IMG/VR virus record: IMGVR_UViG_3300037606_000073
Location: 1 to 58,832 of that record
From: a virus
Taxonomy: Duplodnaviria > Caudoviricetes
Reading direction: 5' to 3' (one strand)
Length of the DNA: 58,832 nucleotides
This document shows, piece after piece, positions 578-39,000 of the stretch. A program made the translations under genes and the position numbers. A model generated the notes under the pieces. It ran no database searches, was not told where the DNA came from, and was given only the letters and a program-made list of their open reading frames with translations. The stretch's first letter is position 1; every line of letters begins with the position of its first letter.

Positions 578-3052
578 TCAGCCTCCTAATGCTTGGATAA
601 GAGGTAGCGCGATATTCTGCACACCACGGGAGAAAGCCTGCCCCTCGACAGTACCGCGCTCGAAGTCCACGCGCAAGTCGTCCCCGAGGTAGGTGTCCCC
701 GAGTTCGGTTGAGAACGTGGCATAGACCCGCCCGCCATCCAGCTTCAGGTTCGCAAACGCTGGGTTCACGGCTTCGCCGGTACCACGCTGAGAGAACGGC
801 AGCGAGTTGTAGTTCACCCCCGAGCCGACGTAGCTGAACTGTTGCCCAGTTGCTTCGACTACAGATGGGAACCCTATCGTAGGGGGCGTCTCGACGTTGG
901 TCTTGATGAGCGTAATTAACGAGCCCAGCATGGCCTCAGCTGGAGCCGTCAGCGCACACCGCGCGAGGATTCGGGCTTGGATGATTTCCCAGCTGCGCAG
1001 GAAGATTGGTAGTAGCCCAGCGCTGAAGTGGTACTCAGCGTTCCAGTTGAACAGTCCCTTCACAAAGAACTGCGCCCCGCGGTCTTGGCCCGACCGGAAG
1101 TCACCCGACAGCTGGCGCAGCAAGGTTCCAGCGTCGCGGCGCGTCAGGGCCTCGTTCTCAACACTGAAGTTCTGCACTTCCACAAACTCGTCAGCGAGTT
1201 GTATGTACATCTCCTCGATGATGGTGGCCTGCTGCTCAATGATCGCATCGGCTGTGGCCACGTACACTCCGCGGGGCTGCCCAACAGGGTCTTCGATCCG
1301 GATTGTGTTCCGGAAGCCCGTCGCTACAAGCGCGTAGTCACCAAAGGTATTGTTGGAGTTGGCAACCGTAACCTGTCCGCCGTCGAGGCACCACAAGCCG
1401 TAGCGGCTCCAGTTCGTGAACACCGACACAAGCTGCACAAACGCGTTGCGTTTGATCAGGTAGCCGTAACCGTTCGGGTTGATCGCTGTAAAGCTGTCGA
1501 CCACCACGGACCGTAGCGGTGAGGAAGGCGCAAGTACAGAGCCGTCGGCCAGCAGGTTACCGCCACCGCGCGGCATGAGCGGATTACCCGCTGCACGGTC
1601 GATAGGCAGCGTCAGCTGGTCCTGTGTGAAGTTGTGCAGCATAGAGCAGTCAGAGATATACGGCGAGCGTATGATGACCGCACCGGGCTTAAACACGAAC
1701 ACAAAGCCCTTCTCAGGTGGATAATCATACTCGGGTTCTATGGCGACCCCAGCTATCTTGCGATACAGCTCCGAGCCAACAGTAAAGTAGCCCCGCTCAG
1801 CAACCGCCGCGAGGCCAGTGCCCTCGTTCACATAGTTTGGCGCTGCCTCATGCTGCAATCCGGTGAACGTAAAACCGCGGACTTTGGTGCCGCTGTTCAG
1901 CATGAACATATTGTTCTGCGCCAAACCACTGGGTAGCGACAGCTTCGTTGTACGTAAGTCGTACCCGTACAGCAGACAGTTTACAGGGACTTCTGTGTCC
2001 GGCTGTACTGTATACTCACCGGGGTAAACAATCACACCACATGGGACTGCAAGCACCGCGGCTTTTGCAAGCGCCGTGCCAATAGTCGCTAACGAGGCCC
2101 CGAGACTGGTGCCCGTGTTTGCGTCGTTGCCACCCATCGTCACGTAGAAAGTGCGCTCTACAGTGTACGAGTCAGCAACGCCAGCTCCAGCAGGGATCGT
2201 GCCTGCGGGCCACTGGAAATCGGACGGGATGACGAGGTTGTCGGCCGACACGACGAGCGGCGTTGGCAGCGCGGTTTGCGTTAGGGTCAGCGTGTCAAGG
2301 TCAGTCTCATGTCCGACGCCATAGGTACGGTACCATGCGATGCCGTAGCGGGCTGAACTGGGGACATATACGTCGTAGGCTTCACCGCCCGCGAAGCCGA
2401 CCGAGTAGGAGAACTCCCGGCGAAGCGAGCTTACGAGCAGTGTGTTGTCGGAGTGGACGACGATCTCACCGATCTTGTTGCCGAACCCGTTGTACCAGTC
2501 GATACCCGCAGTAATCCCGTCGTTGGCAGGATCGCCACTGTCCTTGAACCGCTGGTACCCGCCGCGGAAAGTGTATGTTTGGCCCGCTTCGAGCGGCACT
2601 GAGTACCTCATGGCTGCCATGCCAAGCCCCGTGAAGCGGTATACTTTACCGTTCAGGCCAACAGCGTTCGCGCCACCAGATAGATTGAAGTAATCGGGTG
2701 CGTCGCCGGGGCGGTGTTCACGGAAAAGCTCCGAAGCCTTCTGCACCTGAGCTGTCGTACTCGTGAGGTTCCCCACGGTGACGCGGAGCTCGACAAGACT
2801 GCCGGGGTTGAAGGCTTGCGGGATTGTCTCCTCAGCACCACGCTCAACGGTCAGTACGTCGCCCGCGCGAGCGGTGACGTTTACGATCTCAAGGGCGTTG
2901 TCTGTAGACACAATGGTCGCGAAGAAATTCTCACCGGCGCTCAGCGTCGGAAACGCCGCGCCCGTTCCCGCAGTCAGCGTGACCTGCGTACCCGTGTCGG
3001 TAATAGCGGCAGCAAGAAACCCGCGCGCGTTGTTCTTCAGTTTAACTGACAT
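578..3052 (-). CDS. Tail fibre/spike-like protein with beta-helix (pectin-lyase-like) region
   Basis: N-terminal phage tail anchor motif (NNARGFLAAAI...EIVNVTARAGDVLTVERG). FYVTMGGNDANTG and RSPYISDCS...VVDSFTAIN motifs resemble phage beta-helix virion proteins. Confidence 0.7.
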   Translation of the reverse strand: MSVKLKNNARGFLAAAITDTGTQVTLTAGTGAAFPTLSAGENFFATIVSTDNALEIVNVTARAGDVLTVERGAEETIPQAFNPGSLVELRVTVGNLTSTTAQVQKASELFREHRPGDAPDYFNLSGGANAVGLNGKVYRFTGLGMAAMRYSVPLEAGQTYTFRGGYQRFKDSGDPANDGITAGIDWYNGFGNKIGEIVVHSDNTLLVSSLRREFSYSVGFAGGEAYDVYVPSSARYGIAWYRTYGVGHETDLDTLTLTQTALPTPLVVSADNLVIPSDFQWPAGTIPAGAGVADSYTVERTFYVTMGGNDANTGTSLGASLATIGTALAKAAVLAVPCGVIVYPGEYTVQPDTEVPVNCLLYGYDLRTTKLSLPSGLAQNNMFMLNSGTKVRGFTFTGLQHEAAPNYVNEGTGLAAVAERGYFTVGSELYRKIAGVAIEPEYDYPPEKGFVFVFKPGAVIIRSPYISDCSMLHNFTQDQLTLPIDRAAGNPLMPRGGGNLLADGSVLAPSSPLRSVVVDSFTAINPNGYGYLIKRNAFVQLVSVFTNWSRYGLWCLDGGQVTVANSNNTFGDYALVATGFRNTIRIEDPVGQPRGVYVATADAIIEQQATIIEEMYIQLADEFVEVQNFSVENEALTRRDAGTLLRQLSGDFRSGQDRGAQFFVKGLFNWNAEYHFSAGLLPIFLRSWEIIQARILARCALTAPAEAMLGSLITLIKTNVETPPTIGFPSVVEATGQQFSYVGSGVNYNSLPFSQRGTGEAVNPAFANLKLDGGRVYATFSTELGDTYLGDDLRVDFERGTVEGQAFSRGVQNIALPLIQALGG

Positions 3053-5743: not shown

Positions 5744-6663
5744 TACGCAATCCTATTCACTACGAGGATAACCGCAGGTATCACTGGGCGGTTGTAGGGC
5801 ACAGTCTGTGCATCTACATGGTGCAAAGTCACCCCGGCGTTTTCCACAGCAACGACGACTTCAAGGTACTGCCCCGCTGTGACTTGTAGGAGTCCGGTAA
5901 CAGCCTGACAAGTAACGCCGCCGTCAGAAGACTTGGGTATAACCAGCTCAGACGCTGAGTTCGGGATGTCCGTACCGTTCAGTCGGAACCACACCTCCGC
6001 GTCGTGGTCATTGTTATCGGTGTTCTGAAACTGAAGGCGGGATGCAATCTCGTACACCCCTGCAGCCGCAAACGTGATCCGCGTACTGCTCGTGACCGAC
6101 ACCCCAGCTGCAAGCCCAGTTGTGTCGAACTCTACAACTGTAGCTGTATCTGCAGTAAATGTCTGGTCGCTGAGGTCGTAGAAGATTCCGTGCGCCCGCC
6201 CGGTCACGTCGCCAAAGGCCACGCTGATTGGGTCTCCGGGCTGCAGCGCGCTATCAGCCAGCGCACCCTGCGCGGCTGTGGCGAAGTCTCCGGGCTGCAG
6301 CGCGCTATCAGCCAGCGCACCCTGCGCGGCTGTGGCGAAGTCGCCTGTGTCATTTAGCGCGGCAGTCCCGAGACCAAGCTCAGCCCGCGCCTGCGCCTGA
6401 TCGCCGTATGTAACCTTAGTGATAACCACCGAGCCAGTCCCATTGGGGCTCAAGGTGATGTCACCGTTCTCGTCAATGCTGCTGATCGTGTTGCCCGCGA
6501 TGCGTACGTTGCCAGCCGAGGCGGACACTGTACCGACCTTCAGGGCTGTGGCAACGCCCGTGCCGCTGTAGACGACCTTCTCGGTAGCCGCCGGCCCGCC
6601 GTCGACGTGCAGCAGCTGGCTGTACGTGTCTTTGATTTTGTTCGCTGTCAGGTTGGTAGTCAT
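5743..6663 (-). CDS. Virion fibre-like structural protein with C-terminal beta-sandwich
   Basis: ATAAQGALADSALQP fibre motif (x2) and a beta-rich C-terminus. Start placed at ATG 6663. Confidence 0.6.
   Translation of the reverse strand: MTTNLTANKIKDTYSQLLHVDGGPAATEKVVYSGTGVATALKVGTVSASAGNVRIAGNTISSIDENGDITLSPNGTGSVVITKVTYGDQAQARAELGLGTAALNDTGDFATAAQGALADSALQPGDFATAAQGALADSALQPGDPISVAFGDVTGRAHGIFYDLSDQTFTADTATVVEFDTTGLAAGVSVTSSTRITFAAAGVYEIASRLQFQNTDNNDHDAEVWFRLNGTDIPNSASELVIPKSSDGGVTCQAVTGLLQVTAGQYLEVVVAVENAGVTLHHVDAQTVPYNRPVIPAVILVVNRIA
6232..6342. repeat. Perfect 54-bp in-frame tandem duplication (DFATAAQGALADSALQPG x2)
   Basis: 6232..6285 equals 6286..6339. Confidence 0.95.
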
Positions 6664-9159: not shown

Positions 9160-9387
9160 TCAGCTACCCCTCGTGGGCTCTGCTGCCAAATCAGGGGCTT
9201 GTTTTGCGAGCTTGTATATCTCGCCTAGAACCTGACATCGCCCCTGCGCAAATGCCACGTTCTGCGTTACGTTGGGGAGCCTATCCAATTCGTGACGCTG
9301 CCATTCTCCCAGCCAGTTCATAACTTCTGGGTATTGGCGCATCGTGATTGCAATAGCCTTCACAACGTCAGGGGCTGGTCGGATCAT
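9160..9387 (-). CDS. Small conserved protein downstream of portal
   Basis: ATGA-coupled to portal; AQGRCQVL motif typical of post-portal small proteins. Confidence 0.65.
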   Translation of the reverse strand: MIRPAPDVVKAIAITMRQYPEVMNWLGEWQRHELDRLPNVTQNVAFAQGRCQVLGEIYKLAKQAPDLAAEPTRGS

Positions 9388-11432
9388 CCTGCACCCCCTG
9401 TATCTCGGTTGCTCACGGTGTTTCCTTCGGTACCGCCAGCTTGGGCTCCACCGGGCTGTAGCGTCTCTGGCGAAGGCTGCCCCTGCGGTGGGGCCGCGGC
9501 AGCCGCAGTACTCGCGGTAAACTTCAGCTTGTCCCGTGAGGGAATGATCTCATCGGTTGGCATCTGCAGCCCCTTGGCAACTTCCCGCAGGATAGCCGCA
9601 CGGCCTTCGATACCAATGATCTGCATGTCGATCTCGTTAGCAGTGGCGTTAAGGAACTCAAGCCGCCGCACGTTCACAGTCTCTTTGACCGCGAGGTTGA
9701 CAGCGCCACGCGCGATAACTTCTGCGTCACCCTTGATGCTCTCGTCCTCGTCGTACCGCATGTTGTACACGAACTGGCGGTGCACGATGGCGTAGATCAC
9801 ATCGTTGTCGATGTGCATCACGACCTGCCGAATACCCTTACCCGCGGAGCCCATCAGCATGGACAGGCCCGAGGCTGTACGCCCCGCACCCTGCACGTTG
9901 GTGTCGCCGTAAATGTAGGATGGGATGCCACTGTGGTCGTCGGCCATCTTGGAGAACCGCTCGTACACTCCGAGCAACTCGTTGGCACGAGAGTCTGGCT
10001 GGTTGAACCGCACCGCCGGTGCGCTCGACCCCAGCGGGTCGTTCATAACCTGCCAGATTTTCCATGGGTGGATTTGGGTGATGTCTTCGTTCGGTGGGAT
10101 GCGCTCAAGGTTGACCTCGACCTGCGGGCCGGAGGCAATCGCCATGTTGTTGACCAGCGCGCGGACAGCGGCGTTACACACGCCCTGAATGTCTTCGATG
10201 ATGTCGGGGATACCGCGGCCCCAGAACGCCCCGGGCGTCTTGATGAACGACGTCTTAGCGTAGGGCTTCTCACCCAACGGGTCGTAGTTGAGGATCGCCT
10301 TTATGACGTACCGCCCCACAACCCACACATTGGCGTCGTACTCGCTGGCTTCGTCTGGGACTTCTTCTTCGCTAAGCCCCCACTCGCGCAGCATTTTACC
10401 GCTTACCTTGCCCCAAAACTCTAAGGCGTCGTACATATCGGTCGGGCGCATCTCGGTGTAGAACTTGCGTTCCTCCTCCTCGCGCTGCATCTCGACGTGC
10501 TCTTGAATCCATGACTGTGACGGGCCGTGCTCCAGCGTCGCCCGGATCGCCCCGTCGTCGTACCCCGGCACGCCTATTAGGTCCGCCAGCTGCGTCCTGC
10601 TCAGCTTGTGCAGCTCGAACAGGTATCCGTCGTCGATGTGTGTGACGCCCGGCTCAGGGAAGATGTTGAACGGGCTGACCCGCTCGTACTCCGGTGCCAG
10701 CCGCTCGCTGGCCTCGACCCGCGTGGTGCCGTCCTGACCTTTGCTCCAGCCCAGATGGCGCTGGCGGCGTACAATCGGGCCTTTTATGAAGGCACACGGA
10801 AATGTTACTAGGTCAGTGATGAACTCGTTGAAGGCTTCAGACCAGCCGCCCTGCGCAAACTGGTCGTCGATCTTGATCTTCATGCGGTCAACGGCGTTCT
10901 GCGCGGCCTGCATGATTTTGAAGCGGTACTCTTGGGCCACCAGCTCTTTGAGCTCAGACATCTGCGTTTCGTCCGGGGCCATGCCAGTGGACTGCACCAT
11001 AGCCACCACCTTCTGCGCAAAGCTGGACTCCAGCTCCGCGGTCTGGTCCGGCGACAGGTCAGGGATTGGCGTCGTCATCATGTCCCATGGGGGCGTACCG
11101 TTGTCCAGCAGGATGTCGCGCAGCCAGCTCTCGGCCGCCCGGCACTTCACCTCGGTAATCATCATGTAGACTTCAGAGCCGCCCTGCGTTTTGATATGCG
11201 ACAGCTTGTCTGCTTCGTACTCGCCATTGCGCTGGCGCATGGCGCGCAGCATTATGTACTCGATAGGCTTCTTGGCGAGCCGTGCGGCGTCCCAACAGGT
11301 GCGCACGTAGGCACCCAGACCGAGAATGAACGGGTCATTTTGCCGTGTCCGCACCTCACGGTCGATGCGCTCCTGCTCGTCACGAGCAAGATCGTCGTTG
11401 TTTAGGACGCGTAGTAGGGACAGCCCAGCCAT
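9384..11432 (-). CDS. Portal protein
   Basis: 682 aa following terL; YERVSPFNIFPEPG, EFWG, FWGRGIPD and RTASGLSMLM podophage portal motifs. Confidence 0.9.
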   Translation of the reverse strand: MAGLSLLRVLNNDDLARDEQERIDREVRTRQNDPFILGLGAYVRTCWDAARLAKKPIEYIMLRAMRQRNGEYEADKLSHIKTQGGSEVYMMITEVKCRAAESWLRDILLDNGTPPWDMMTTPIPDLSPDQTAELESSFAQKVVAMVQSTGMAPDETQMSELKELVAQEYRFKIMQAAQNAVDRMKIKIDDQFAQGGWSEAFNEFITDLVTFPCAFIKGPIVRRQRHLGWSKGQDGTTRVEASERLAPEYERVSPFNIFPEPGVTHIDDGYLFELHKLSRTQLADLIGVPGYDDGAIRATLEHGPSQSWIQEHVEMQREEEERKFYTEMRPTDMYDALEFWGKVSGKMLREWGLSEEEVPDEASEYDANVWVVGRYVIKAILNYDPLGEKPYAKTSFIKTPGAFWGRGIPDIIEDIQGVCNAAVRALVNNMAIASGPQVEVNLERIPPNEDITQIHPWKIWQVMNDPLGSSAPAVRFNQPDSRANELLGVYERFSKMADDHSGIPSYIYGDTNVQGAGRTASGLSMLMGSAGKGIRQVVMHIDNDVIYAIVHRQFVYNMRYDEDESIKGDAEVIARGAVNLAVKETVNVRRLEFLNATANEIDMQIIGIEGRAAILREVAKGLQMPTDEIIPSRDKLKFTASTAAAAAPPQGQPSPETLQPGGAQAGGTEGNTVSNRDTGGAG

Positions 11433-11465: not shown

Positions 11466-11494
11466 ACTATACACACGCTTTGTTTTTTCAGCAA
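11466..11494 (-). promoter_or_regulatory. Sigma70-type promoter for the portal/capsid operon
   Basis: TTGCTG-N17-TATAGT with an extended -10 TG. Confidence 0.6.
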
Positions 11495-11500
11495 GGTAAG

Positions 11501-11534
11501 AAAAAAACCCCCACTGGGGGAGAACCAGCGGGGG
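11501..11534 (-). terminator. Rho-independent terminator
   Basis: CCCCCGCTGG-TTCTCCC-CCAGTGGGGG followed by T7. Confidence 0.85.
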
Positions 11535-11585
11535 AGTAGTTCAGGCAAGCAGTGTCCAACAGGGAGGAATTGGACAGTAGTGACT
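11501..11585 (-). ncRNA. Candidate ~85-nt sRNA with two anti-SD hairpin loops
   Basis: Own promoter at 11591..11619. Hairpin UGUCCAAU-UCCUCCCU-GUUGGACA, then a terminator hairpin with loop UUCUCCC and U7. Confidence 0.55.
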
Positions 11586-11590
11586 TCACC

Positions 11591-11619
11591 TATATACTAC
11601 GTCCATCCGCTCGATGCAA
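11591..11619 (-). promoter_or_regulatory. Sigma70-type promoter overlapping the terL stop
   Basis: TTGCAT-N17-TATATA. Confidence 0.55.
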
Positions 11620-12982
11620 CCCGCTTTACATCACGGCGCTCTATCATGTGCTGTCCCTCCCCTGCGGACGCTATATGTAGCATTAGGTACTGCAGCGCTT
11701 CGGCCACGTGGCTGTGTTTGTTCTTGTCGATCCCACCGTTCTTATCGAACCGGTAGCCGCCCATCATGGCCGCCTTGAGGCGCATACACCTTGGGTCGAG
11801 CAGGAACCCCGGGTCGCCGTCGACCTGCCGCATGAGAAACTCATCCACGGAGTTGATCCGCGCGCTGACCTTGTTGGTCTTGGCCGGTATGACCCGCAGC
11901 CCTTCTGCCTTGATGATGTCGACCGCGGTCCGCTCGTCTGTCTGCGCCCGCTGCGTACCCGCTGGGTCGACGACGATCAGGATGGGCGCGCCCGGGAACC
12001 GCTCGTAGATCAGTGGCTTGAGCATCGTCCGCACGAAGCGCTGAATCCCCATGTCGAAGCTGACCAGTTCGTCGAATACCAGTGCCCGCCCCCGCGGGTC
12101 CTGCTGCCCAATCACAGCCGCCGGTGTCAGCCCGAGGTCCATCCCCACCACGATGGGTCGAGTCCCGTTACTGATAGGCCGTAGGGTCTGGCCTGCCATG
12201 TGGTAGTCCGGCCGAAAGTACTGGTAGACCGGCTTACCGTTGCTGCTCAGCCCGTACTCACCGTCGATGAACACCCGGACGTAGTCCTCGCTACGGCCTT
12301 GGATGTCGTAGTACCCCTCTGGCAGGTTCTCGACGTTCTCGGCGTAGGGGCTGCGCCCCGACGGCTGCTTGAACACATCCCAGCCGTTGTCGTTCTTACC
12401 GACCCCGTCCTTGGGGTCAATTTTCTCCATCTGGTAGTACCACCACGTGTCCATGGTTGGCGGGTTGGTGTCCCCCCACATCCCGTGCCACGTCGGCCCG
12501 CCGTCCTTGTTGGATGGGAACCGCCCGACGCGTTTGGACATGGCGTCCACGATCTCCGGCGCGATGTCCCTGCACTCGTTGAACCACGCGAAGGTAAGTT
12601 CCAGCGAGTTGAGGTTAGCCACGTCGTCCGCGTCGTCCAGCGCACGGAACATAATCTCACACTCAATATCACCGACCTCGAAGAAGTAGGTCTTGGTGGT
12701 GCGCATGTACCGCCCGCACACCCCCGGCGGGAACCAGTCGAGGAACGTCTTGATCGTGGTGTCCTGCAGCTGCCGTGCTGTCTCGCGGACCACAGCCGCC
12801 CGTGTCCTGCGCTTGCCCGTATTGGAGTCCGGTAGCTGTGCCGCCGCCCGGCGGATAACCTCAAAGCTGCAGGTCACAGACTTACCCGAGCCCACCGGGC
12901 CCATCAGCGTACGCATCTTGGCGTCGGACTTCATAAACCGCTCACCTGTCGGCGGCGGGGTGTAGTCTATGGACAAACCCAT
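11597..12982 (-). CDS. terL: Terminase large subunit
   Basis: Walker A GPVGSGKS, Walker B region AWFNECRD, DTNPP motif, RNase H-like nuclease GMDLGLTPA...HSHVAEALQY. Confidence 0.95.
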   Translation of the reverse strand: MGLSIDYTPPPTGERFMKSDAKMRTLMGPVGSGKSVTCSFEVIRRAAAQLPDSNTGKRRTRAAVVRETARQLQDTTIKTFLDWFPPGVCGRYMRTTKTYFFEVGDIECEIMFRALDDADDVANLNSLELTFAWFNECRDIAPEIVDAMSKRVGRFPSNKDGGPTWHGMWGDTNPPTMDTWWYYQMEKIDPKDGVGKNDNGWDVFKQPSGRSPYAENVENLPEGYYDIQGRSEDYVRVFIDGEYGLSSNGKPVYQYFRPDYHMAGQTLRPISNGTRPIVVGMDLGLTPAAVIGQQDPRGRALVFDELVSFDMGIQRFVRTMLKPLIYERFPGAPILIVVDPAGTQRAQTDERTAVDIIKAEGLRVIPAKTNKVSARINSVDEFLMRQVDGDPGFLLDPRCMRLKAAMMGGYRFDKNGGIDKNKHSHVAEALQYLMLHIASAGEGQHMIERRDVKRVASSGWT

Positions 12983-13686: not shown

Positions 13687-13906
13687 GGGGGTATGCAAAG
13701 TATACAGTTTGGTTTCTGGAGGGCTTAAAAGTATACACGTTCCTTTTTCTGGCCTGTGCTTTGTGAGGTTTACTACACTATGGGGGGGCCAAAAAATCCG
13801 CTGTCCGACTGCCCCCCCGGCCCCCCGGCCCCTACGCTGCGGCGCCGCGCGGCGTGCTTAAAACTATACAAGGCAAGCCCGCAAACCCCTATAAAAACAG
13901 GCCTAT

Positions 13907-14411: not shown

Positions 14412-14600
14412 ATGACACCACACGTTGATACTAAACTGAAGCAACTGCACTACGACGCCTATGTCAGCCGCATTGGCCAGCTGGCAGCGAGGCGGTACCT
14501 CGCCACCCGTGAAGAGCCACCTACACGCGGCAACATCCGCGCTACCATTGCCTTTATACTTTTGGCCGCGGCCGTGATCTTCATCGGCATGGTACTCTAA
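14412..14600 (+). CDS. Small membrane protein (62 aa)
   Basis: GGAG RBS; C-terminal hydrophobic helix. Confidence 0.65.
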   Translation: MTPHVDTKLKQLHYDAYVSRIGQLAARRYLATREEPPTRGNIRATIAFILLAAAVIFIGMVL

Positions 14601-14606
14601 CCACCG

Positions 14607-14640
14607 ACCCGTCTAGCGAAAGCTAGGCGGGTTTTCTTTT
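14607..14640 (+). terminator. Rho-independent terminator
   Basis: ACCCGTCTAGC-GAAA-GCTAGGCGGGT followed by TTTCTTTT. Confidence 0.85.
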
Positions 14641-14747
14641 GTCCTGCTGTCCTGCTGTCCTGCGGTCTCTTAGCGCTTTCGTCCCTCGATTCTCTCGGCA
14701 TACGTCGGGGGTCTTTAGCTCGAAACTGTACACACGCGCGCCCCGTA

Positions 14748-15226
14748 GTATACATGTAAACTTTGGAGTCATTAGTATACGTGTATAGTTAAAGTATACG
14801 TGTATACTCTCAACTAAGTATACACTTTACGCTTGTAACCTACTGAAAACAAACAACTATCTATTTTGCCCAAAAACTATCTACGTTTTTACGCTCTGTA
14901 AGTATACGTTTCAAGGGTCCGTGTATACCGGGTTTTGTGTAAGGTTTGCGGTATACAGGGAGAAAAAGCGTGTGAAACCAAGGGGATAGAGCGTGTTTAG
15001 TGTATATATACATTAGAGCAACTATCTAACTATCTATCTATCTACACATATATTAGCCCTTTCATGCGCGAATATATTCACAAGTATACACGCACCTGCA
15101 CTAAAAGATAGAGCCTCTACTGAAATAATCGTAGATAGTTAGATAGTTGTTTGTTTTCAGTAGGTTACAGCCGATTTTCGTAGATAGTTGCGTAGATAGT
15201 TTATCTAACCCACTTGGTGTATACTT
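14748..15226. other. AT-rich non-coding region with iteron-like repeats (putative replication origin)
   Basis: Eight AACTATCTA/TAGATAGTT copies, ten GTATAC palindromes, central TGTATATATACA palindrome. Confidence 0.6.
14834..15169. repeat. Perfect 30-bp inverted repeat (14834..14863 / 15140..15169)
   Basis: TGTAACCTACTGAAAACAAACAACTATCTA and its exact reverse complement, 276 bp apart. Confidence 0.95.
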
Positions 15227-15275
15227 GGGCCGCAAGCCGGAAAAACCTAGCAAAATCAAGGGCTTAACCCGAAAC

Positions 15276-15304
15276 TTGACACGGCTCGGCCGACGTGCTA
15301 GTTT
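15276..15304 (+). promoter_or_regulatory. Sigma70 early promoter
   Basis: TTGACA-N17-TAGTTT with extended -10 TG. Confidence 0.7.
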
Positions 15305-15367
15305 CAAAATCGCCAAGCCCAACCCGGCACGGTAGTATAAAATCTCTCCGAAAAGGAACTAACTATT

Positions 15368-15694
15368 ATGTTTGATAATATCTTCATGGACGTAACCGAC
15401 AACGAAGTTGACACTGTACCAGTGACTTGGGTCAATATCGCCGACCTAAGTGAACACACAACCCATCGTATACTTACCATACGTCCTCGTCGTCGGACCT
15501 ATCTACACCAGTCTGAGGCTGGTTATGACTGGGCTGCTGGTCGTGAGTTCGTGGTTACTTCCGTATCAAGCCCCTACTGTGGGCAGGTAGTGGCAGTAGA
15601 CGAACGCCGTAACCTCGTTGGGTATGGTTACACTCATGTACAAATTCACTACAACAACGTGTCAGCACCGCTGATGCTTTCCCTCGTAAAGTAA
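15368..15694 (+). CDS. Hypothetical protein (108 aa)
   Basis: AAGGA RBS, downstream of the promoter. Confidence 0.7.
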   Translation: MFDNIFMDVTDNEVDTVPVTWVNIADLSEHTTHRILTIRPRRRTYLHQSEAGYDWAAGREFVVTSVSSPYCGQVVAVDERRNLVGYGYTHVQIHYNNVSAPLMLSLVK

Positions 15695-15707: not shown

Positions 15708-15980
15708 ATGAACTATACAATCGAGATCGACGAGTACAGCCTTGAGGCAACCGCCGACGTGCTGCGTATTATCAACCCCGGTAAGTCCAGTGCTGCCCAT
15801 ATCAGGGCCAGGGTCAACGCTAATATGCGGGATGGTTCCACGTCCCTTAGTACTGCTGGCTGGGAAGCTGCTGGTTTCTTCCCTGACCATAAGCCCGGTG
15901 TAATGGTAGTCCGCTTTGCTGTCGCTGCCTACACAGTACAGTGCTGGCTTGATAACAACCCCACCAAGGAGATCAACTAA
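15708..15980 (+). CDS. Hypothetical protein (90 aa)
   Basis: AAGGA RBS; TAATG coupling to the next gene. Confidence 0.7.
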   Translation: MNYTIEIDEYSLEATADVLRIINPGKSSAAHIRARVNANMRDGSTSLSTAGWEAAGFFPDHKPGVMVVRFAVAAYTVQCWLDNNPTKEIN

Positions 15981-16777
15981 TGTACGGAAGTAACGTCCAA
16001 TTACCCAGCAACCGTATGCTGTCCTACAACACAGCACTGCTCAAGTACAACTCCATCAAGCCTATCCGTGGTCGGTCAGACCAGAACACAAGGCCACTGG
16101 CCCATCGTGGCAACGACAACCTGACCATCCGGATGGAGCCAACGACCAGTGACATACTGGTCCGGCTCTACTCCACGGATATTGTCCGCTATGTCCACCA
16201 GCAGGGTGGTGACCCCGACCTAAGTCCCATCATCTTGGACCCTTATGCTTCTGTCCTGACCAACAGTGTCATGCGGTCCATCCTTGGGCCACATGTTAAT
16301 ACCTACTGGTCGAATAGTGGCCTCATCACCGAAGTGGGTGGTCGGTACTATAACACCCCGTCCTTCGTCACGGTCCAGCCAGCAGAGACCGGTTGGACGC
16401 TTGTCGATGGTTCCAAGCCCATCGAGGTGCCGGCTTTCAACCGTAAAGAGGGCAAGCAGGCCCTCAAGGACAGCAACTACTACATGTTCAAGCTATGGTT
16501 GGATACACGTATTCGTCTCAACTTGAGTCCACTTGGCCCCCGTTGGTACACTCGCAGTCCGTTTTGGACACCTAGTGAGGCTATGGCCTACCTCCGCCAA
16601 GGTGAGACTGGTTGGGCTGAGATCGCTGGTCGTACGAGAAACCGTGAACCACTGGAGGCTGAGCTGCGGTTACTGCGTGAGGCTGTCTACAAGCACGGTA
16701 TGTGCTACGACACTGAGTCGTATGAGTACTTTGGCAGCCACACCAAGCTACAAGCCGCCATGCGTAGGGTCAGATAG
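15980..16777 (+). CDS. Hypothetical phage protein (265 aa)
   Basis: AAGGAG RBS; long ORF within the operon. Confidence 0.75.
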   Translation: MYGSNVQLPSNRMLSYNTALLKYNSIKPIRGRSDQNTRPLAHRGNDNLTIRMEPTTSDILVRLYSTDIVRYVHQQGGDPDLSPIILDPYASVLTNSVMRSILGPHVNTYWSNSGLITEVGGRYYNTPSFVTVQPAETGWTLVDGSKPIEVPAFNRKEGKQALKDSNYYMFKLWLDTRIRLNLSPLGPRWYTRSPFWTPSEAMAYLRQGETGWAEIAGRTRNREPLEAELRLLREAVYKHGMCYDTESYEYFGSHTKLQAAMRRVR

Positions 16778-16786
16778 TTTGGGTGA

Positions 16787-16850
16787 TGTCGAAACGCCCT
16801 ACGGGGCGTCTGACATGGGTGGCTCCCATGTCACTGATGAGACAAGCCAT
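16787..16850 (+). ncRNA. Type II hammerhead ribozyme with loop-I/3'-tail pseudoknot; predicted cleavage after C16810
   Basis: UGUC-GAA-ACGCCC(UACG)GGGCGU-C^-UGACAUGGG(UGGCU)CCCAUGUCA-CUGAUGA-GACA-AGCCA. Complete catalytic core, all three stems, and the UGGCU loop is complementary to AGCCA. Confidence 0.93.
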
Positions 16851-16866
16851 ATAATAGGAAAAAGAT

Positions 16867-17856
16867 ATGCGTGCTACATTACTGAAAGAAACACTCAAGT
16901 CGCTGGTCACGATTGGCCGGTCCACAGCTATCGAGGGGCCCCCGGGCGGGGGTAAGACCACCATCGTCCACGAGGTGGCCGAGGCTATGGGGCTGCCTGT
17001 CATGGAGCGGCACATGCCCACCATGCTGGTCGAGGACTTTGGGATACCGTATCCCACTGACGCTGGGTTCGAGTACAAGCTGCCCGATTGGTTCCCCCTC
17101 AAGGGCAAGGCTGGCACTGAGCGTGGTGGTATCCTGCTGTTTGACGACCGGAACCAAGCCAACGCTGATCTACAAAAGGTACTGGCCAACATCCAGCAAG
17201 CTCGGACCCTACATGGCAAGCCCTTGGCCGATGGGTGGACGGTGGTGTCAACTGGTAACAGGCAGTCCGACAGGGCTGGTGCCAACAGGGTTCTGTCACA
17301 CCTTCGTAACCGTGAGACCGTGCTGGAGTTCGAGACACACCTCGACGATAGCACCCAGTGGATGATCGACCACGACGTACACCCCATGGTCATTGCCTTC
17401 ACGCGGTTCCGACCCCACTTGCTGCATGACTTCGACCCACAGCGTGACGTCAACCCAACACCACGGTCATGGGTCGAGGGTGTCAGTGCAGTACTGGGCA
17501 ACGTGCCATCCGAGGCAGAGTACGAGTGCTTCAAGGGTGCCATTGGTGAGGGTGCCGCAGCTGAGTTTGTTGGGTTTGTGCGTATCTACCGTAAGCTGCC
17601 CAACCCCGATGCTATTCTCATCAACCCCGATACGGCAGAGGTACCGACTGACCCGGCCACACTCTACGCCTTGTCCGGTGCCTTGGCTGACCGTGCCACC
17701 GAGGCCAACTTGGAACGTGTTGTGACGTACACCAGCCGTATGCCAGCCGAGTTCTCGGTCCTCAGCATCTCCCATGCTGTCCGTAAGACACCCGATCTGG
17801 CCAACACGGCAGCCTTTACCAAGTGGGCAGTGAGCCACCAAGATGTCCTCTTTTAA
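16867..17856 (+). CDS. MoxR-like AAA+ ATPase
   Basis: Walker A GPPGGGKT, Walker B ILLFDD, TGNRQSDRAGA sensor region, PTPRSW motif. Confidence 0.9.
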   Translation: MRATLLKETLKSLVTIGRSTAIEGPPGGGKTTIVHEVAEAMGLPVMERHMPTMLVEDFGIPYPTDAGFEYKLPDWFPLKGKAGTERGGILLFDDRNQANADLQKVLANIQQARTLHGKPLADGWTVVSTGNRQSDRAGANRVLSHLRNRETVLEFETHLDDSTQWMIDHDVHPMVIAFTRFRPHLLHDFDPQRDVNPTPRSWVEGVSAVLGNVPSEAEYECFKGAIGEGAAAEFVGFVRIYRKLPNPDAILINPDTAEVPTDPATLYALSGALADRATEANLERVVTYTSRMPAEFSVLSISHAVRKTPDLANTAAFTKWAVSHQDVLF

Positions 17857-33063: not shown

Positions 33064-33073
33064 TCACTCTGCA
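33047..33073. terminator. Hairpin at the junction of the convergent arms
   Basis: TGCAGAGTGACT-TAT-AGTCACTCTGCA, a perfect 12-bp stem spanning both stop codons. Confidence 0.55.
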
Positions 33074-36000
33074 ATGTAGGCATCCACGATCTTCTGCGCC
33101 GCACTCCTTGAGGATAGCGGCGTGGTCTTCAGGAACCGCTCACTGGCACCTAGACGCTGCGATCTCAAGGCGCTGCGGACGCGGGACCTAAGGTTGACAA
33201 CCTCCAGCCCTGTCCCCTCGGCGGACTCATTCCACTCTCGGGCCTCTGCATATAGCGCCTGCACCTTGGCGTTATCGCCAGCCACTGTGGCGGCTACGAT
33301 GCGGTCGCGGTAGTACACAGACATAGACTTCTGGTACTCGGTGATGAGCTTGGCCTCACGGACAGCTCCGTACATTGCAGATGTTGCGCTCGGCTGGAGA
33401 CCAAGTATCCGCCCCAGACCTATGGCTGCATTGTAGTCTTCAGATACTACATACCCGCGTTTGTCCACGATGGCTCCGTGCTTCTCGAAGGCGAACGCGT
33501 CCGATACGGCACGCACGAACGCGACCGGCGACTCCCGCAGTGTTGACTCAAGGGAGAAGGCTTTCCCCCCGGGCAGGATGTTGGCCACATTACCTATGGT
33601 CCCTATCATCTGTTGTATCCACGACGCCATCGGTCCGCCAATCGAGATAAGCTCGCGTGACACATCTGCTCCAGCGAGGCCAATACCCGTACCCGGTAGG
33701 ATATTACCATTGGAGAAACGCACGCCAGCGTCGTACGGAATGAGCCGGTTGAGCCCACCGCTCACAATTATCTCCCCCAAGCCGGGGAGCAGCTCGTCCC
33801 CTGTACGGCGGATAGAGTCACGGATGCTGGGCATGGGTATACCAAACTTCTGCGCGAGGGTGTTGACGAGGTCCTCGATGTCTTCGGCGTAGGGCACACC
33901 ACGCAAACCGCTGAGCAGTAGCAGTGACCCTAGCAGCAGCACCTGCCCAGAGCGCGGCAGATTGGCGATGAGTGCCGCAGTGTTTACCGTAAACATCTGG
34001 AACATAAACGCAAACTGTAGCGGGCCGCCGCGGAACAGCGCTGGCCTGTCTATGGCGGTGTACCCCCCAAGCGTAGTCAGAACCATCTGAGTGGAGAACG
34101 CGGAGGCAGCCTCAGCGGCTTCTGCTCGTGACTTACCGGCGGCTAGGTGCCGCTGGAACATAAGCTCGAAACTTGCCAGCGCCGTGGTTCTACGCCCAAC
34201 TTGTTCTGTCCAGTTGAACGGGGCCATGTACACCATCAGGAACTTCTGTGCGCCACCGGATGTGATACGCCCACGCGCCGAGCCCATAAGAGAGTTGGTC
34301 TGGGCAGCTTGGAGGATGCCACTGTCAATACCGAGGGCTACGAAGTCTCGCGCCTCAGCCGAGATACCCATCTCTTGCAGCTGCGCGGGGGTGAGGTCTT
34401 GCCAATACTTAGCTGTGTCCTTCTGCCCACCCAGTCCAGCGGCCACCTTCGTCGCCCGAACCATTGCAGCATACGCGGCGTACACCCCAAAGCCCCCGCC
34501 AAACCCCGTCTCGTGGTTCATTGTGGCCAGTGCTGCGGGCGAGTTGACAAATCCACTCACGACGTTGAGCGCACCCGACGCCATCATAAAGCCGAGGTAG
34601 CTCACAGAGGTCAGCATCTGCACCATCGCGATGTGCTTGTTGTTTGCTAGGTCTGTCTCTAGCACACCCTTCTGCTGGTCGCGGAACGCCACCATCGACC
34701 GGGCCTCTGCGTAGAACTTGTTCCCGTTCGCGGGCGCATTTTCAGTGACATACCACCGGTGGTACTGCTCGAACTTCTGGCGGGCCACGCTGATCGCGTC
34801 GTCGTTCGGGTTAGGCGCAGCTTTGAGTCGTTCGTACTCAGCCTTGAGCGTGTCGTACCTTTTCTTGCTGCCCGTCCACAGCTCCGCGGATTCACCCCTG
34901 ATATCGAGCAGGGTCTCAAGTTCCACACTTGTATTGTTCCGGGCGATGGTGGCTGCGCGCGACTCGATGTGTGCTGAGATCGCACTGGTCAAGTCGTTGG
35001 GTGCACCGGGTGTGAAGCCAGTCTTCAGCTGCCGCAGGATCGCACGGTTACCACTAGTGGTCGAGGCTTTAACAATGTCCTCCAGTTTCTGTGGCGTCAG
35101 AGGGATGTTAAAGCGCCGGATGAACCGCAGCGCGGCGTCGTGGCTGATCTCCGGGTCTGTAGTGGGTGCGTCAAGGGTGACCGAGCTTACCCCTGACAGA
35201 TTGCCCTTCTTCATCACGAGCTTGCCACGACCGTTAGCAGCCTCTGGGTCCCACACTTCTACAGTAAACTCTTTATCACCAAACAAGGTTGTGAGTTCCT
35301 TGGCCGCGCGATCAGCATCCGTCCGGCTTTCGTACTGCATGTACGGGGCCTGCTCGCGATAGCTCTCGCCGAGCACGTACCCTTTTCCGTCTGCCCCGGT
35401 GAACACCATGTTTGCTTGGAACTTACCCTCGCGCACGATAGGGACGTAGCCTGTCTGGATCGTGCGGACAGCAGCCTTCTCAGCGTCGTGGCTTGTAGTG
35501 AGCTGCCCAGCGATGAGTCCTACTTCGCGTTGGACCACGCGCCGTTTTTCTAGGCTTTCGACAGCGTTAGGGTCTGCCGCTGGTGGATTGTAGCGGGTGA
35601 GGAACCCGTCGATCATGTCGGTAAGTTCTTTCCGCTCGCTCTCGGGTAACGCTACGATGTCGTTGTTGTCCGCGTTTGGAGCAAACAACCCGTAGATACG
35701 GTCACGGCCAGTGCCCAGCAGGGCGGCGTTAAACTGAACGAGGAACTTTTCAGCCGCGGCTGTGTCGCGGGTCGAGGGGTCGATTTGCCCGCCCTCAAAG
35801 AGGGTCAGGTTTGCGTCTTGTATCTCCACGTACCGGCGGACAACACGGTCCAGCAGCGCGCGGTCACCATCTGTCATGGCGGCGTCCAGCGCCTTCGCCA
35901 CTCGGCGGTAAGAGTTTAATCTCTCTTGGTCGTGTTTGGTGAGGATACTCTCCAGCAGCTCGACTGCGGTTGTGCCCATCGAGTCCAGCTCTTGGTTGAA

Positions 36001-39000
36001 CGCGCCCCACTCAAGGTCCGTGAACTCCTGCTTCACATCGAGGTATGCCACCCCTGTGTATGTGTTGTTCTCGATACGTGCCTTGTAGTTCCGTGTGATG
36101 CGGTTCTTTGCACGGTCCGTCGTGGCTGCTGCAACAGCAGCGTCGCGCTCAGCCGCAAGCTCGGCGCGCTTCGCGTCAGTCATCTCGATATCTGTGTCGT
36201 AAGGCACACGCACACCTGCGGCCCACTGCCCGCGCGACAGTCTGTTCCCTTCGAGGAGTTTCGTGAGCGTACCATCCTGAAGCTGCAGCTCGCCCGTCGC
36301 AGGGTTGCGCAAGAACAGCTTGGGTAGGTTGCGCATGGATGGCATCTTGTAGGCATGCGAGTGGTACATGCGGTTGGCTTTGAGTACGTACCCTGCCTTG
36401 GCGCGTCCGCCCACGCTGATCCCGCTACCGCCCATACCAACCGTGGCGAGCCTTTCTGCCCGTGGGTTAAGGGCGATGTCACGCATTGTCTGCATACGTG
36501 TGACCAGAGAGCGCGCAATGTTGGTTGTGCGCGTCATATTATCGAATACTTTTTGGAACCCTTCGTTGCGCATACCACGGAAGACAGCCGGAGTAACTGT
36601 GTTACGCTTGAGTGAGTCCCACTTATCGGCGAGGTCCTTGGGCGAGAAACCCAGTACCTCTACGGCGCGCGTGACCTTGTCCAGTGCATCTTGGATAGAG
36701 GACGGCATGACCCGCCCCGGGTCGTCCACCGTGTGGCCTATTGAGCGGATAGTAACGTGCTCGGCTGCAGTGCTGAAGCGGCCCACCCCAGTGGGGTCCG
36801 TGCCTGCGTCGAGCTGGTGCATAGTATTAGCGATTAGGTCAGTGTTGAACACAGAGCCTTTCTCCCCAGTGCGCAGGTACCTGCCGCTCTGGTTCATAAG
36901 GTAGCGCGCGGCATCGTCGTCGAACTTGAAGCCGATATTGTTCAGCGCGTCTTTGGCTTTGGCCCACCACCGACGCAGGATACTCATCTCCACGCGCGCG
37001 GCGAAGTCCGAGAGGTATTCTTCAACAGCTTCTGCGCGGGGGATACCACGTGCCGCGACCATATCGTCGACGGCGATCTTCATGTAGGGCACGCTGTCGG
37101 TGTAGAAGGACTCCATGAGCGTGTTGAACTCGGATGTACCGAGCACGGACCGCATACCAAAGTGGCCCAGCACCTCGTGGGCGACGACGAACTCCAGCTG
37201 CTGGCGCGTAGCGACACGGTCGCTGAAGATGATGACTTGGTTGTCGAAGAAGTACCCCACCGCCGGTGCGGTATCGAAGTCGCCTTGGCCACGGGCCGCA
37301 GCCGCGCGCTTGTAGAGCGCAGGGTTCCGCTGCTTCAGGTCAGCCTGACTTGCGAACACAGACAGCTCGGGCTTTACCTTAAACTTGTTGAGTATATTTC
37401 GGGCGATCATACGCTGCTTGCCGATGGCCAGCGGAACTGCACGACTGCCATTACCAAGAACAACGTCGGCCAGCGACGCGAGCGAGAACGCACCGCCGGG
37501 GTTTGTGTTGGGCGTGGTGTGGGCGATCTGCCCCATCTTTTTGTTTGGCGAATTGTTTACCGTAGCGTACCCGAGGACGTCTGCCTTAGGGTCGCTGTTA
37601 CGCACACGCGTGGCCAGTGCCCTAAACCGCGCTTCGAACGCCGACACGCTGTTGTCGGGCACAGAACCGGAGTTGAACATGGTTACCATGGCCTGTATTT
37701 CTTTGGTCGCGAAGTCCACGCCAGCCGGGTCACCCCCGAGGCTCCTATGGTTGTTCGCACGCGCGACATACGCGGCGAGTTCTTTGTACTGAGTGCTGGA
37801 CAGATTAAGCTCAAGCGCATCCAACGCGGCCGCTGCCACCGATGGGTCAGAGTTCTGGCTAAGCACGGTCAGCTCTGCGCCTGCGTCAAGCTCCGCCTGC
37901 GTGAGCAGGGTACGCTTCTTGCGCGCGTCGTTGAGGATTACATCCTCGGCGAGCTCCACAGCTTCCATCGCTACCGACTGGTCGAACTCTGCGTCTGTCG
38001 GCTCCGCGGGGAGCTTGACTTTCTCTGGCTTCGCGGGCTTCGCCGGGGGCGGCGCTACTTCAGATTCCCGAACAGGCGATTGTTCTTGGGGGGTGTTTTC
38101 TTGGGCGGTTTCTTGGGTAGCCTCTCCGGCAGTGGTTTGCCCTTGGGTGTCTCCGCTTCGAACTTCTCCGCCAGCTGTGGGTTTTTTGCGTAGAGGGTCC
38201 GTCTTTGGCTTTGGCTTTTGAACGGCATCAGGTTTTCCTCTCTTTAGGGTGGGCTTAGGAACCGGTGGCGTAGGTGGGGTTTTCACGCGCAGCGCCCAGC
38301 CCCCCGCGACTTCCATAGGTTCGAGGTCCTTCGGGGTTACAGCTTGGTCAGTCTCTTGGGTGATCTGCTCTGCCACGCGCTTGCGGTTGGCCGGTGCGTT
38401 GGCCTGCGCCTTGTTTTGGAAAGGTGCGCCCTCTGCTGTACCATAGGTGTTGGCAGGTAGCGGCGGGCGCACGCGCTCCATCCGTTGCCCCAGCGCACGC
38501 AGGGCCGCGGCCTGCCCTTGCAGGTCCCGCTGCGCAGCCTCAGTCGCACGGGCCGTAGTCACTTGCTGCTGCATGGCGTTGAGGTCGGCTTCGCGCGTGG
38601 CGGTTACACCGGTGGCTACCAGTGGCTCTGCCTTGCGGACTGTACGTTTCACGAGCCGCGCGAACAGGGCGGCGTCTGCCTCACCCGCACGCTCCGCCAT
38701 GGCCCACTCACGCTGGGCCTTCTTGTTCAGACGTGGCAGCAACGGGAGTGTGTCCGGGTTGGACCGACCAGCGCGTATCTCCGCCCAGCTGCCGTAGGCT
38801 GCGTCGTATTCCCGAGGGGTAATCGCACCAGTGGGGGTGGGCTCCACTACGGTGTCGGTGGGTGCTTCGACCGGCGGTGCTACCACAGGGGCTGGCGTCT
38901 GCGCCGGCTGCGCCGGCTGCTGTCTTTGCTGCAGCTGCATAAGTTGCTGCTGCAACTGGTTTGGTGCAGTCACTAGGGGTGCTGCCGTTGTGACCGCCGG

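Follow-up and report, generated by a model that had tools for sequence, protein, structure and literature searches.

Among described systems, the double-hairpin small RNAs (sRNAs) of Burkholderia (ncS03, ncS05, ncS27, and ncS62) carry CU-rich unpaired stretches complementary to ribosome-binding sites (PMC5688073). Overexpression of ncS27 attenuates growth (PMC5688073, PMC4603805), and anti-hemB, or ncS04, is a proposed non-coding RNA (PMC1950547). The cuckoo RNAs of alphaproteobacteria consist of at least two hairpin modules with a CCUCCUCCC-type motif in loops of 9–27 nt, and they usually lie beside the orthologous gene OG1. Compensatory changes predominate in their stems, and sequence conservation is confined to the loop motif; the word “phage” does not occur in the text of that paper (PMC4615179). 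Known phage sRNAs are few, and most of those in the literature covered here belong to temperate phages with model hosts and act through long, specific complementarity. According to a review, the c4 RNA of phages P1 and P7 has loops that pair around a ribosome-binding site and block translation (PMC12197685). The main text of that 2025 review contains neither “terminase” nor “portal,” and our searches of the open-access literature turned up no report describing an sRNA at a terminase–portal junction or of a generic anti-Shine–Dalgarno (anti-SD) phage sRNA.

The DNA analyzed here (the window) comprises an entire IMG/VR virus record, 58,832 bp long, which CheckV rates as complete. On its minus strand, between the genes for the large terminase subunit (terL) and the portal protein, lies a unit of about 84 nt (11584..11501). 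That this is a genuine non-coding RNA element, both conserved and structured, whose loop resembles an anti-SD sequence is well supported, at a probability of roughly 85%. An earlier note on this DNA had proposed a phage sRNA at this place, and every sequence element that it listed was found there on the minus strand (Table 1). The portal gene is followed by the major head protein and tail genes on the same strand, while the DNA polymerase, helicase, and primase genes lie in a plus-strand block at 15.4–33 kb; no tRNA genes were found in the window.

Table 1. Features of the terS–terL–portal region of the window, in the order of transcription on the minus strand.
Feature	Position	Strand	Remarks
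Promoter motif GTGTATACT 5' of the terS–terL operon	13730..13738	-	GTGTATA[CG]T class
terL (large terminase, 461 aa)	11597..12982	-	ORF; phrog_2 terminase large subunit, E 4.3e-26; stop TAG 11599-11597
-35-like TTGCAT	11614..11619	-	within last terL codons (Val-Ala)
-10-like TATATA	11591..11596	-	directly after stop TAG 11599-11597; 17-nt spacer from TTGCAT; no T at -7
GUCAC motif	11580..11584	-	predicted 5' end of unit
Hairpin 1, 8 bp, arms TGTCCAAT / GTTGGACA	11553..11576	-	loop UCCUCCCU 11568-11561 (8 nt)
Intrinsic terminator hairpin, 10 bp, arms CCCCCGCTGG / CCAGTGGGGG	11508..11534	-	loop UUCUCCC 11524-11518 (7 nt)
Terminator U7 tract (T7 in DNA)	11501..11507	-	sequence reading
Portal promoter TTGCTG-N17-TATAGT	11466..11494	-	TTGCTG 11494-11489, TATAGT 11471-11466; phage-wide motif GTGTATAGT at 11474-11466
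Portal gene (682 aa)	9384..11432	-	phrog_332 / phrog_1216; GGAG 11440-11437; ATG 11432

For the 90-nt stretch, the folding energy is -33.8 kcal/mol, compared with -22.0 ± 2.9 kcal/mol for shuffled sequences (z = -4.15; none of 200 shuffles was as good). Its second hairpin is a G+C-rich stem-loop that runs directly into the U tract, as in an intrinsic (Rho-independent) terminator, and with 10 pairs, eight of them G–C, it is the strongest of nine terminator-like sites between positions 6000 and 18000. The unit had been described as free of open reading frames. A mechanical 33-aa frame with a GTG start does span it (11589..11488), but the frame is unconserved, and four of 16 homologues have no sense frame longer than 5 aa. 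On the plus strand, a promoter-like site (TGGACA-16-TATACT, 11571-11598, 10/12 consensus positions) lies antisense to the unit and points into terL. We treated it as a chance occurrence because its -35 element is the complement of a hairpin-1 arm that is replaced in relatives.

In a search of the unit against Rfam, no family reached its gathering score. The best of the sub-threshold matches was anti-hemB (RF02837), with 26.6 bits over the whole model (E = 3.5e-4; gathering score 49.5), followed by NsiR1 (26.0 bits against 39), ar14/cuckoo (RF02344; 24.2 bits, E = 0.016, against 58.8), and mmgR (20.2 bits against 41). Membership of the cuckoo RNAs, with which, as with the AbcR RNAs, the unit had been compared, is not borne out by the ar14 score, and no AbcR-type family (AbcR-type sRNAs being, we assume, the ar15 family of Rfam) is among the six matches at E ≤ 10. 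By bit score, by loop motif and length, and by OG1 context, the unit falls outside the cuckoo RNAs each time: its loops are 8 and 7 nt long, they read UCCUCCC and UCUCCC rather than CCUCCUCCC, only one of them is conserved, and the unit sits in a phage between terL and the portal gene instead of in an alphaproteobacterial OG1 neighborhood. What it does share with the cuckoo, ar14, and CcsR RNAs is a modular arrangement of hairpins with a C-rich anti-SD motif in a loop, together with stems that change mainly by compensation around a conserved loop motif.

The likeness to betaproteobacterial RNAs is of a similar kind. Anti-hemB also has a hairpin with a CCUCCCUG-type loop, followed by a terminator, but it is a chromosomal motif of betaproteobacteria that adjoins hemB. 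The Burkholderia double-hairpin RNAs resemble the unit in their length of about 60–90 nt, in a single strand of the UGUC type at the 5' end, in a CU-rich first hairpin, and in a second hairpin that is the terminator; unlike the unit, they are encoded in the chromosome, at several places that are not linked to one another. The Betaproteobacteria toxic sRNA family (RF02278) gave no match for the window's unit at E values up to 10. The unit of one relative (L017) aligned with that family over the full length of the model and scored 30 bits, where the gathering score is 50; the two have in common the 5' UGUC, the CU-rich first hairpin, and the terminator. The c4 RNA has long and specific complementarity to the ant mRNA, whereas the unit has only a generic match to SD-like sequences. 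The unit would thus work like the sRNA families with C-rich loops while being a member of none of them.

The best match of the window's terL in a cultured phage is that of Pseudomonas phage Rollin, at 45.6% amino-acid identity, and related terL genes are present in more than 602 viral metagenome contigs from uncultured phages. Eighty of these contigs, with loci at 78–95% identity, were analyzed, and together with the window they yielded 61 distinct 3' flanks of terL. Most of these flanks begin with the same kind of short CU-rich unit and terminator directly 3' of terL. By our own criterion, a terminator lies within 200 nt of the stop codon in 49 of the 61; three of the 49 were false short calls and were dropped, which left 46 units in 30 sequence clusters. 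The portal start could be located in 68 of the 80 loci, at distances from terL of about 120 to about 2,350 nt, and many relatives have other genes between the unit and the portal gene.

Across the related terL–portal spacers, both hairpins keep their pairing through compensatory changes. A covariance model (R1), built from 11 close homologues with a structure given by hand, had a single match in the window, the unit itself (84.7 bits), and it recovered 16 clear homologues at E < 0.001. In the alignment of these 16, 89.3% of cells pair, compared with 78.4 ± 1.3% in shuffles, although the alignment was fitted to R1 and therefore favors the structure of that model. Changes on both sides occur in 11 of 17 pairs (3.9 ± 1.4 in shuffles, with none of 500 reaching 11; 1–3 in slid controls). 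Among the 16 homologues, compensatory changes affect five of seven pairs in helix 1 and six of ten in the terminator helix, where 93.1% of cells are paired. Whole stems have been replaced around a loop that stays CU-rich, for example with GCAAGC/GCTTGC around UUCUCCCA in one relative (L016) and GUGCUA/UAGCAU around UCCUCCA in another (L088). The frequent G–U pairs work only on the minus strand, which favors an RNA of that sense over a DNA signal. RNAalifold, run on a plain MAFFT alignment, gave a 3-bp helix inside the loop, which we rejected as an artifact of three misaligned sequences (L014, L015, and L012).

The loop of hairpin 1 contains CUCCC in 12 of the 13 homologues that have this hairpin, and the exception (L014) carries UCCUCCC in its terminator loop instead. 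The unit had been said to present two anti-SD loops. Retention of CUCCC supports the first of them, but in the terminator loop CUCC occurs in only nine of 16 homologues. The earlier note had also named, as one outcome that would speak against it, loops that vary on conserved stems. What we see is the reverse, covarying stems around a CUCCC loop that persists, and this gives good support to a structured RNA whose loop is anti-SD-like.

The same tendency is visible beyond the homologues recovered by the model. In the part of the unit before the terminator, CUCC is found in 24 of the 30 clusters, compared with 13.1 ± 2.6 in dinucleotide shuffles (none of 500 reached 24), and it is mostly unpaired in the minimum-energy fold; the complement, GGAG, is found in one of 30. 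Within 100 nt of the stop codon, GTCAC was present in 17 of 38 clusters (4.3 ± 1.8 in shuffles), CCTCC in 20 (shuffle mean 8.2), and CTCCC in 19 (8.4), while the complements GGAGG and GTGAC were present in none (2.3) and two (3.2), respectively, counts that are not independent events given that the clusters are related. The motifs nevertheless persist where the flanking sequence has diverged. Contiguous UCACCUCC, which we take to be the 3' tail of 16S rRNA, occurs in two of 38 clusters against 0.18 expected (four of 300 shuffles reach two), which we regard as no more than a lead, and the looser UCACC(N)UC occurs in six against 1.0. GUCAC is also found in the terminator loops of three relatives (L009, L010, and L011).

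A promoter overlapping the terL stop codon had been proposed for the unit, and the comparison bears this out in one group of relatives and weakens it in the window. Over the 61 flanks, the bases after the stop are T (55/61) and A (52/61), then three variable positions and T (44/61), with a purine seven bases further on, at the predicted start, in 47 of 61. Directly after the stop (offset +3), 39 of 61 flanks have the pattern TAnnnT, whereas no other offset shows it in more than seven. Seventeen nucleotides upstream, a TTG within Val-Ala codons is present in 45 of the 61 distinct flanks; the wobble base of the Val codon is T in 50, compared with at most 30 at other mixed wobble positions nearby. 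Such a TTG-17-nt-TAnnnT arrangement is, by its sequence, a good sigma-70 signature placed to transcribe only the unit. It is clear in flanks with a TGA stop, of which 36 of 45 (19 of 27 clusters) have TAnnnT, but degraded in the TAG-stop clade to which the window belongs, with TAnnnT in three of 14 flanks (two of nine clusters); two further members of this clade, found by a pattern search, also lack the final T. The window's own TTGCAT-N17-TATATA agrees with the consensus at seven of 12 positions, has no T at -7, and is absent from the seven promoter-like sites returned by a scan, so that taken alone it is no better than chance. It also falls outside the GTGTATA[CG]T class of promoters in this phage.

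These observations make an independently promoted sRNA likely in the TGA-type relatives. For the window it is doubtful, as is a discrete primary transcript from about 11584, because the -10 element is degraded in its clade. Here, the element is at least the 3' end of the terS–terL operon. Host sRNAs of the DapZ and MicL type, which derive from 3' UTRs, have a promoter inside the upstream gene and share the terminator of the mRNA, and they are regulators with defined targets. The unit resembles them in that its promoter would overlap the end of the upstream coding sequence and its terminator would be shared, with the qualification that the putative promoter is clear only in relatives.

The layout of the surrounding genes bears on the same question. 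The motif GTGTATA[CG]T (GTGTATANT) appears to be a phage-wide promoter motif, with eight copies in the window against 0.70 expected. The separate portal promoter noted earlier is present and is of this type. With a promoter of the same class in front of terS and the terminator between the two, terS and terL form an operon of their own that is closed by the terminator. Two GTATACT boxes precede terS on the minus strand (13738-13730 and 13707-13699). The terS message had been predicted to be leaderless; against this, the GTATACT -10 motifs lie about 45–80 nt upstream of the first ATG (13650), but the 30 nt 5' of that ATG are C-rich and without an SD match. The listed TTG start of terS abuts a -10 motif.

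The terS–terL operon would start with the GTGTATACT promoter motif (13738), run as far as the terminator (11534-11501), and end in a three-part RNA module, made up of a 5' GUCAC, a hairpin with a CUCCC (anti-SD-like) loop, and the intrinsic terminator. In most relatives, the module would have its own promoter laid over the terL stop codon (TTGnnn, 14 nt, TGA, TAnnnT), in which the TGA stop supplies the TG of an extended -10 element, and this promoter would give rise to a discrete sRNA of 65–85 nt that shares the mRNA terminator, the arrangement of a “type I 3' UTR sRNA.” In the clade of the window, with TAG and TATATA, any promoter belonging to the unit would be weak at best, and the RNA probably arises mainly as the 3' end of the terminase mRNA, from which it may be trimmed back to GUCAC. 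For the exposed loop, the best pairing partner is predicted to be AGGGAGGA. By base-pairing with G-rich ribosome-binding sites, it may lower translation in trans, a mode of action proposed for the Burkholderia double-hairpin (“toxic”) sRNAs and for the alphaproteobacterial cuckoo/CcsR RNAs. Of the mechanisms considered for the unit, we favor this pairing, but we hold it tentatively, at somewhat under an even chance. What the sequences show directly is the conservation of sequence and structure, the covariation, the terminator, the promoter signature in relatives, and the lack of a conserved reading frame; the transcription of the unit, its 5' end, its trans action, and its targets are inferred.

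Much of the same evidence could be read more simply. The unit may be merely the 3' untranslated end of the terminase operon, where a terminator precedes a separately promoted portal gene, hairpin 1 protects or stabilizes the message, and the loop has no pairing role. The position of the terminator between two promoters of the phage-wide motif agrees with this, as do the weakness of the window's own promoter (7/12, no T at -7) and the failure to find a specific target among the phage gene starts. However, a plain stabilizer does not need to retain its loop sequence while its stems are replaced, and the promoter signature in most relatives would transcribe only the unit. The unit also persists when an inserted gene separates it from terL, and there is an excess of GUCAC and CUCC but not of their complements. 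We regard a simple 3' end as rather unlikely. If the loop does pair, its partners might lie close by: the CUCCC loop could bind the SD sequence of terL (AGGAG) or of the portal gene (GGAG) and set the ratio of terminase to portal protein. The fixed position at the terL–portal junction across the family and the GGAG-type SD sequences of both neighbors would suit regulation in cis or within the phage, but the complementarity is just 4–6 nt and generic, many relatives have intervening genes with spacers of up to about 2,350 nt between unit and portal gene, and a promoter that makes the unit alone fits trans action better. Such local regulation seems to us quite improbable.

A third possibility is that GUCAC...CCUCC mimics the 3' tail of 16S rRNA and binds a factor that recognizes this tail, so that the RNA would be a decoy for a protein or the ribosome and not a partner of mRNAs. 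The excess of contiguous UCACCUCC and of the looser UCACC(N)UC points in this direction, as does the recurrence of GUCAC in terminator loops of relatives. The contiguous mimic is rare, though; in the window its two halves are separated by 12 nt that include part of the stem, and no candidate binding partner has been identified, which leaves a decoy of this kind very improbable. Pairing of the loop with ribosome-binding sites remains our preferred mechanism for the unit.

As to possible targets of such pairing, the 11-mer complementary to the loop region is not enriched in the window: allowing up to two mismatches, there were 10 matches against 11.6 expected. The sole exact match was the gene's own complement, and the one intergenic match (14956) does not lie at a gene start. 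At the 54 phage gene starts, we found no extended complementarity to the loop, the longest contiguous match being 7 nt (one gene) and 6 nt (five genes), so any pairing would be of the short, generic SD kind. A ranking of the 54 starts with RNA.duplexfold produced long, loop-ridden duplexes in no sensible order and was set aside as uninformative. SD-like tetramers are present in 31 of the 54, and the phage's own genes would consequently not be immune to the loop. A broader and speculative idea, which we consider unlikely, is that in abundant uncultured aquatic phages a GUCAC...CCUCC RNA made from a stop-codon promoter acts as a mimic of the 16S tail that soaks up SD sites or their reader. It would then be a general brake on host or late SD-led translation, from which messages without an SD, such as that of terS, would escape.

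If the unit does act on ribosome-binding sites, it would give these phages a way to reshape translation during infection by means of an RNA. This CU-rich RNA of uncultured phages would be family-wide and conserved in structure, with a fixed place at the terminase–portal junction, and in most members a promoter signature is overlaid on the terL stop codon. The module is compact, an RNA of 84 nt with one loop, and it has natural variants that carry the promoter as well as others that lack it. With the homologue alignment and the covariance model, metagenomes can be searched for related units.

Outside the family, the reach of the unit appears limited. A DNA search of the spacer against cultured phages gave chance-level matches only, and R1 had no matches in Pseudomonas phage Rollin, Rhizobium phage RHph_TM3_14A, Burkholderia phage BcepC6B, or Pelagibacter phage Hodr, where the gap after terL is 9, 16, 88, and 2 nt, respectively. 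When a viral collection was scanned with the core pattern of hairpin 1, it turned up in eight places, five after terL and three in unrelated coding contexts, and thus the unit has apparently not spread to other contexts. Relatives are also found on eight contigs from metagenome-assembled genomes (MAGs), whose labels include Burkholderiales (two), Planctomycetales, Actinobacteria, Paraglaciecola, and Armatimonadia; these are too mixed for a host to be named. R1 had no match in one of the two Burkholderiales MAGs, and in the other it matched only the copy on the phage contig itself.

Several relatives depart from the common layout. In three of them (L064, L068, and L070), a 174-aa reading frame has been inserted after terL, and the unit is kept 630 nt downstream, accompanied by a duplicated 33-nt end of terL that carries TTGCAG-N17-TATACA. 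The inserted frame is Cys-rich and reads as HNH-like, and terL itself (2038-5023 in L064) encodes 755 instead of 461 aa in all three, with an extra segment that looks intein-like. In four others, an apparent protein-coding start rather than an RNA unit directly follows terL; the sequence after the stop is TGA-TACAGT in two of them (L050 and L054), where the TAnnnT box is present, and TGA-TACACC in the other two (L078 and L079). One relative (L088) has a second such unit about 1.4 kb upstream of terL (989-1077, plus strand), for which the score was 19.2 bits against R1 and 27.6 bits against anti-hemB.

Elsewhere in the window, a non-coding control region at 14600-15370 separates the divergent gene blocks, in a part (14–16 kb) with a G+C content of 0.488. 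GTGTATA[CG]T occurs in it five times, counting both strands, alongside many GTATAC palindromes and recurring TAGATAGTT and CTATCTA words, and the region may hold early promoters, operators, or an origin. A reading frame of 2,530 aa (33064-40656, minus strand) has a single PHROG match, which covers the last ~460 residues and is to a family of unknown function. Just one Rfam match in the window exceeds its gathering score: a type II hammerhead on the plus strand (16787-16852; 41.9 bits against 37), which lies between two early plus-strand genes, 15980..16777 and an ATPase gene at 16867..17856.
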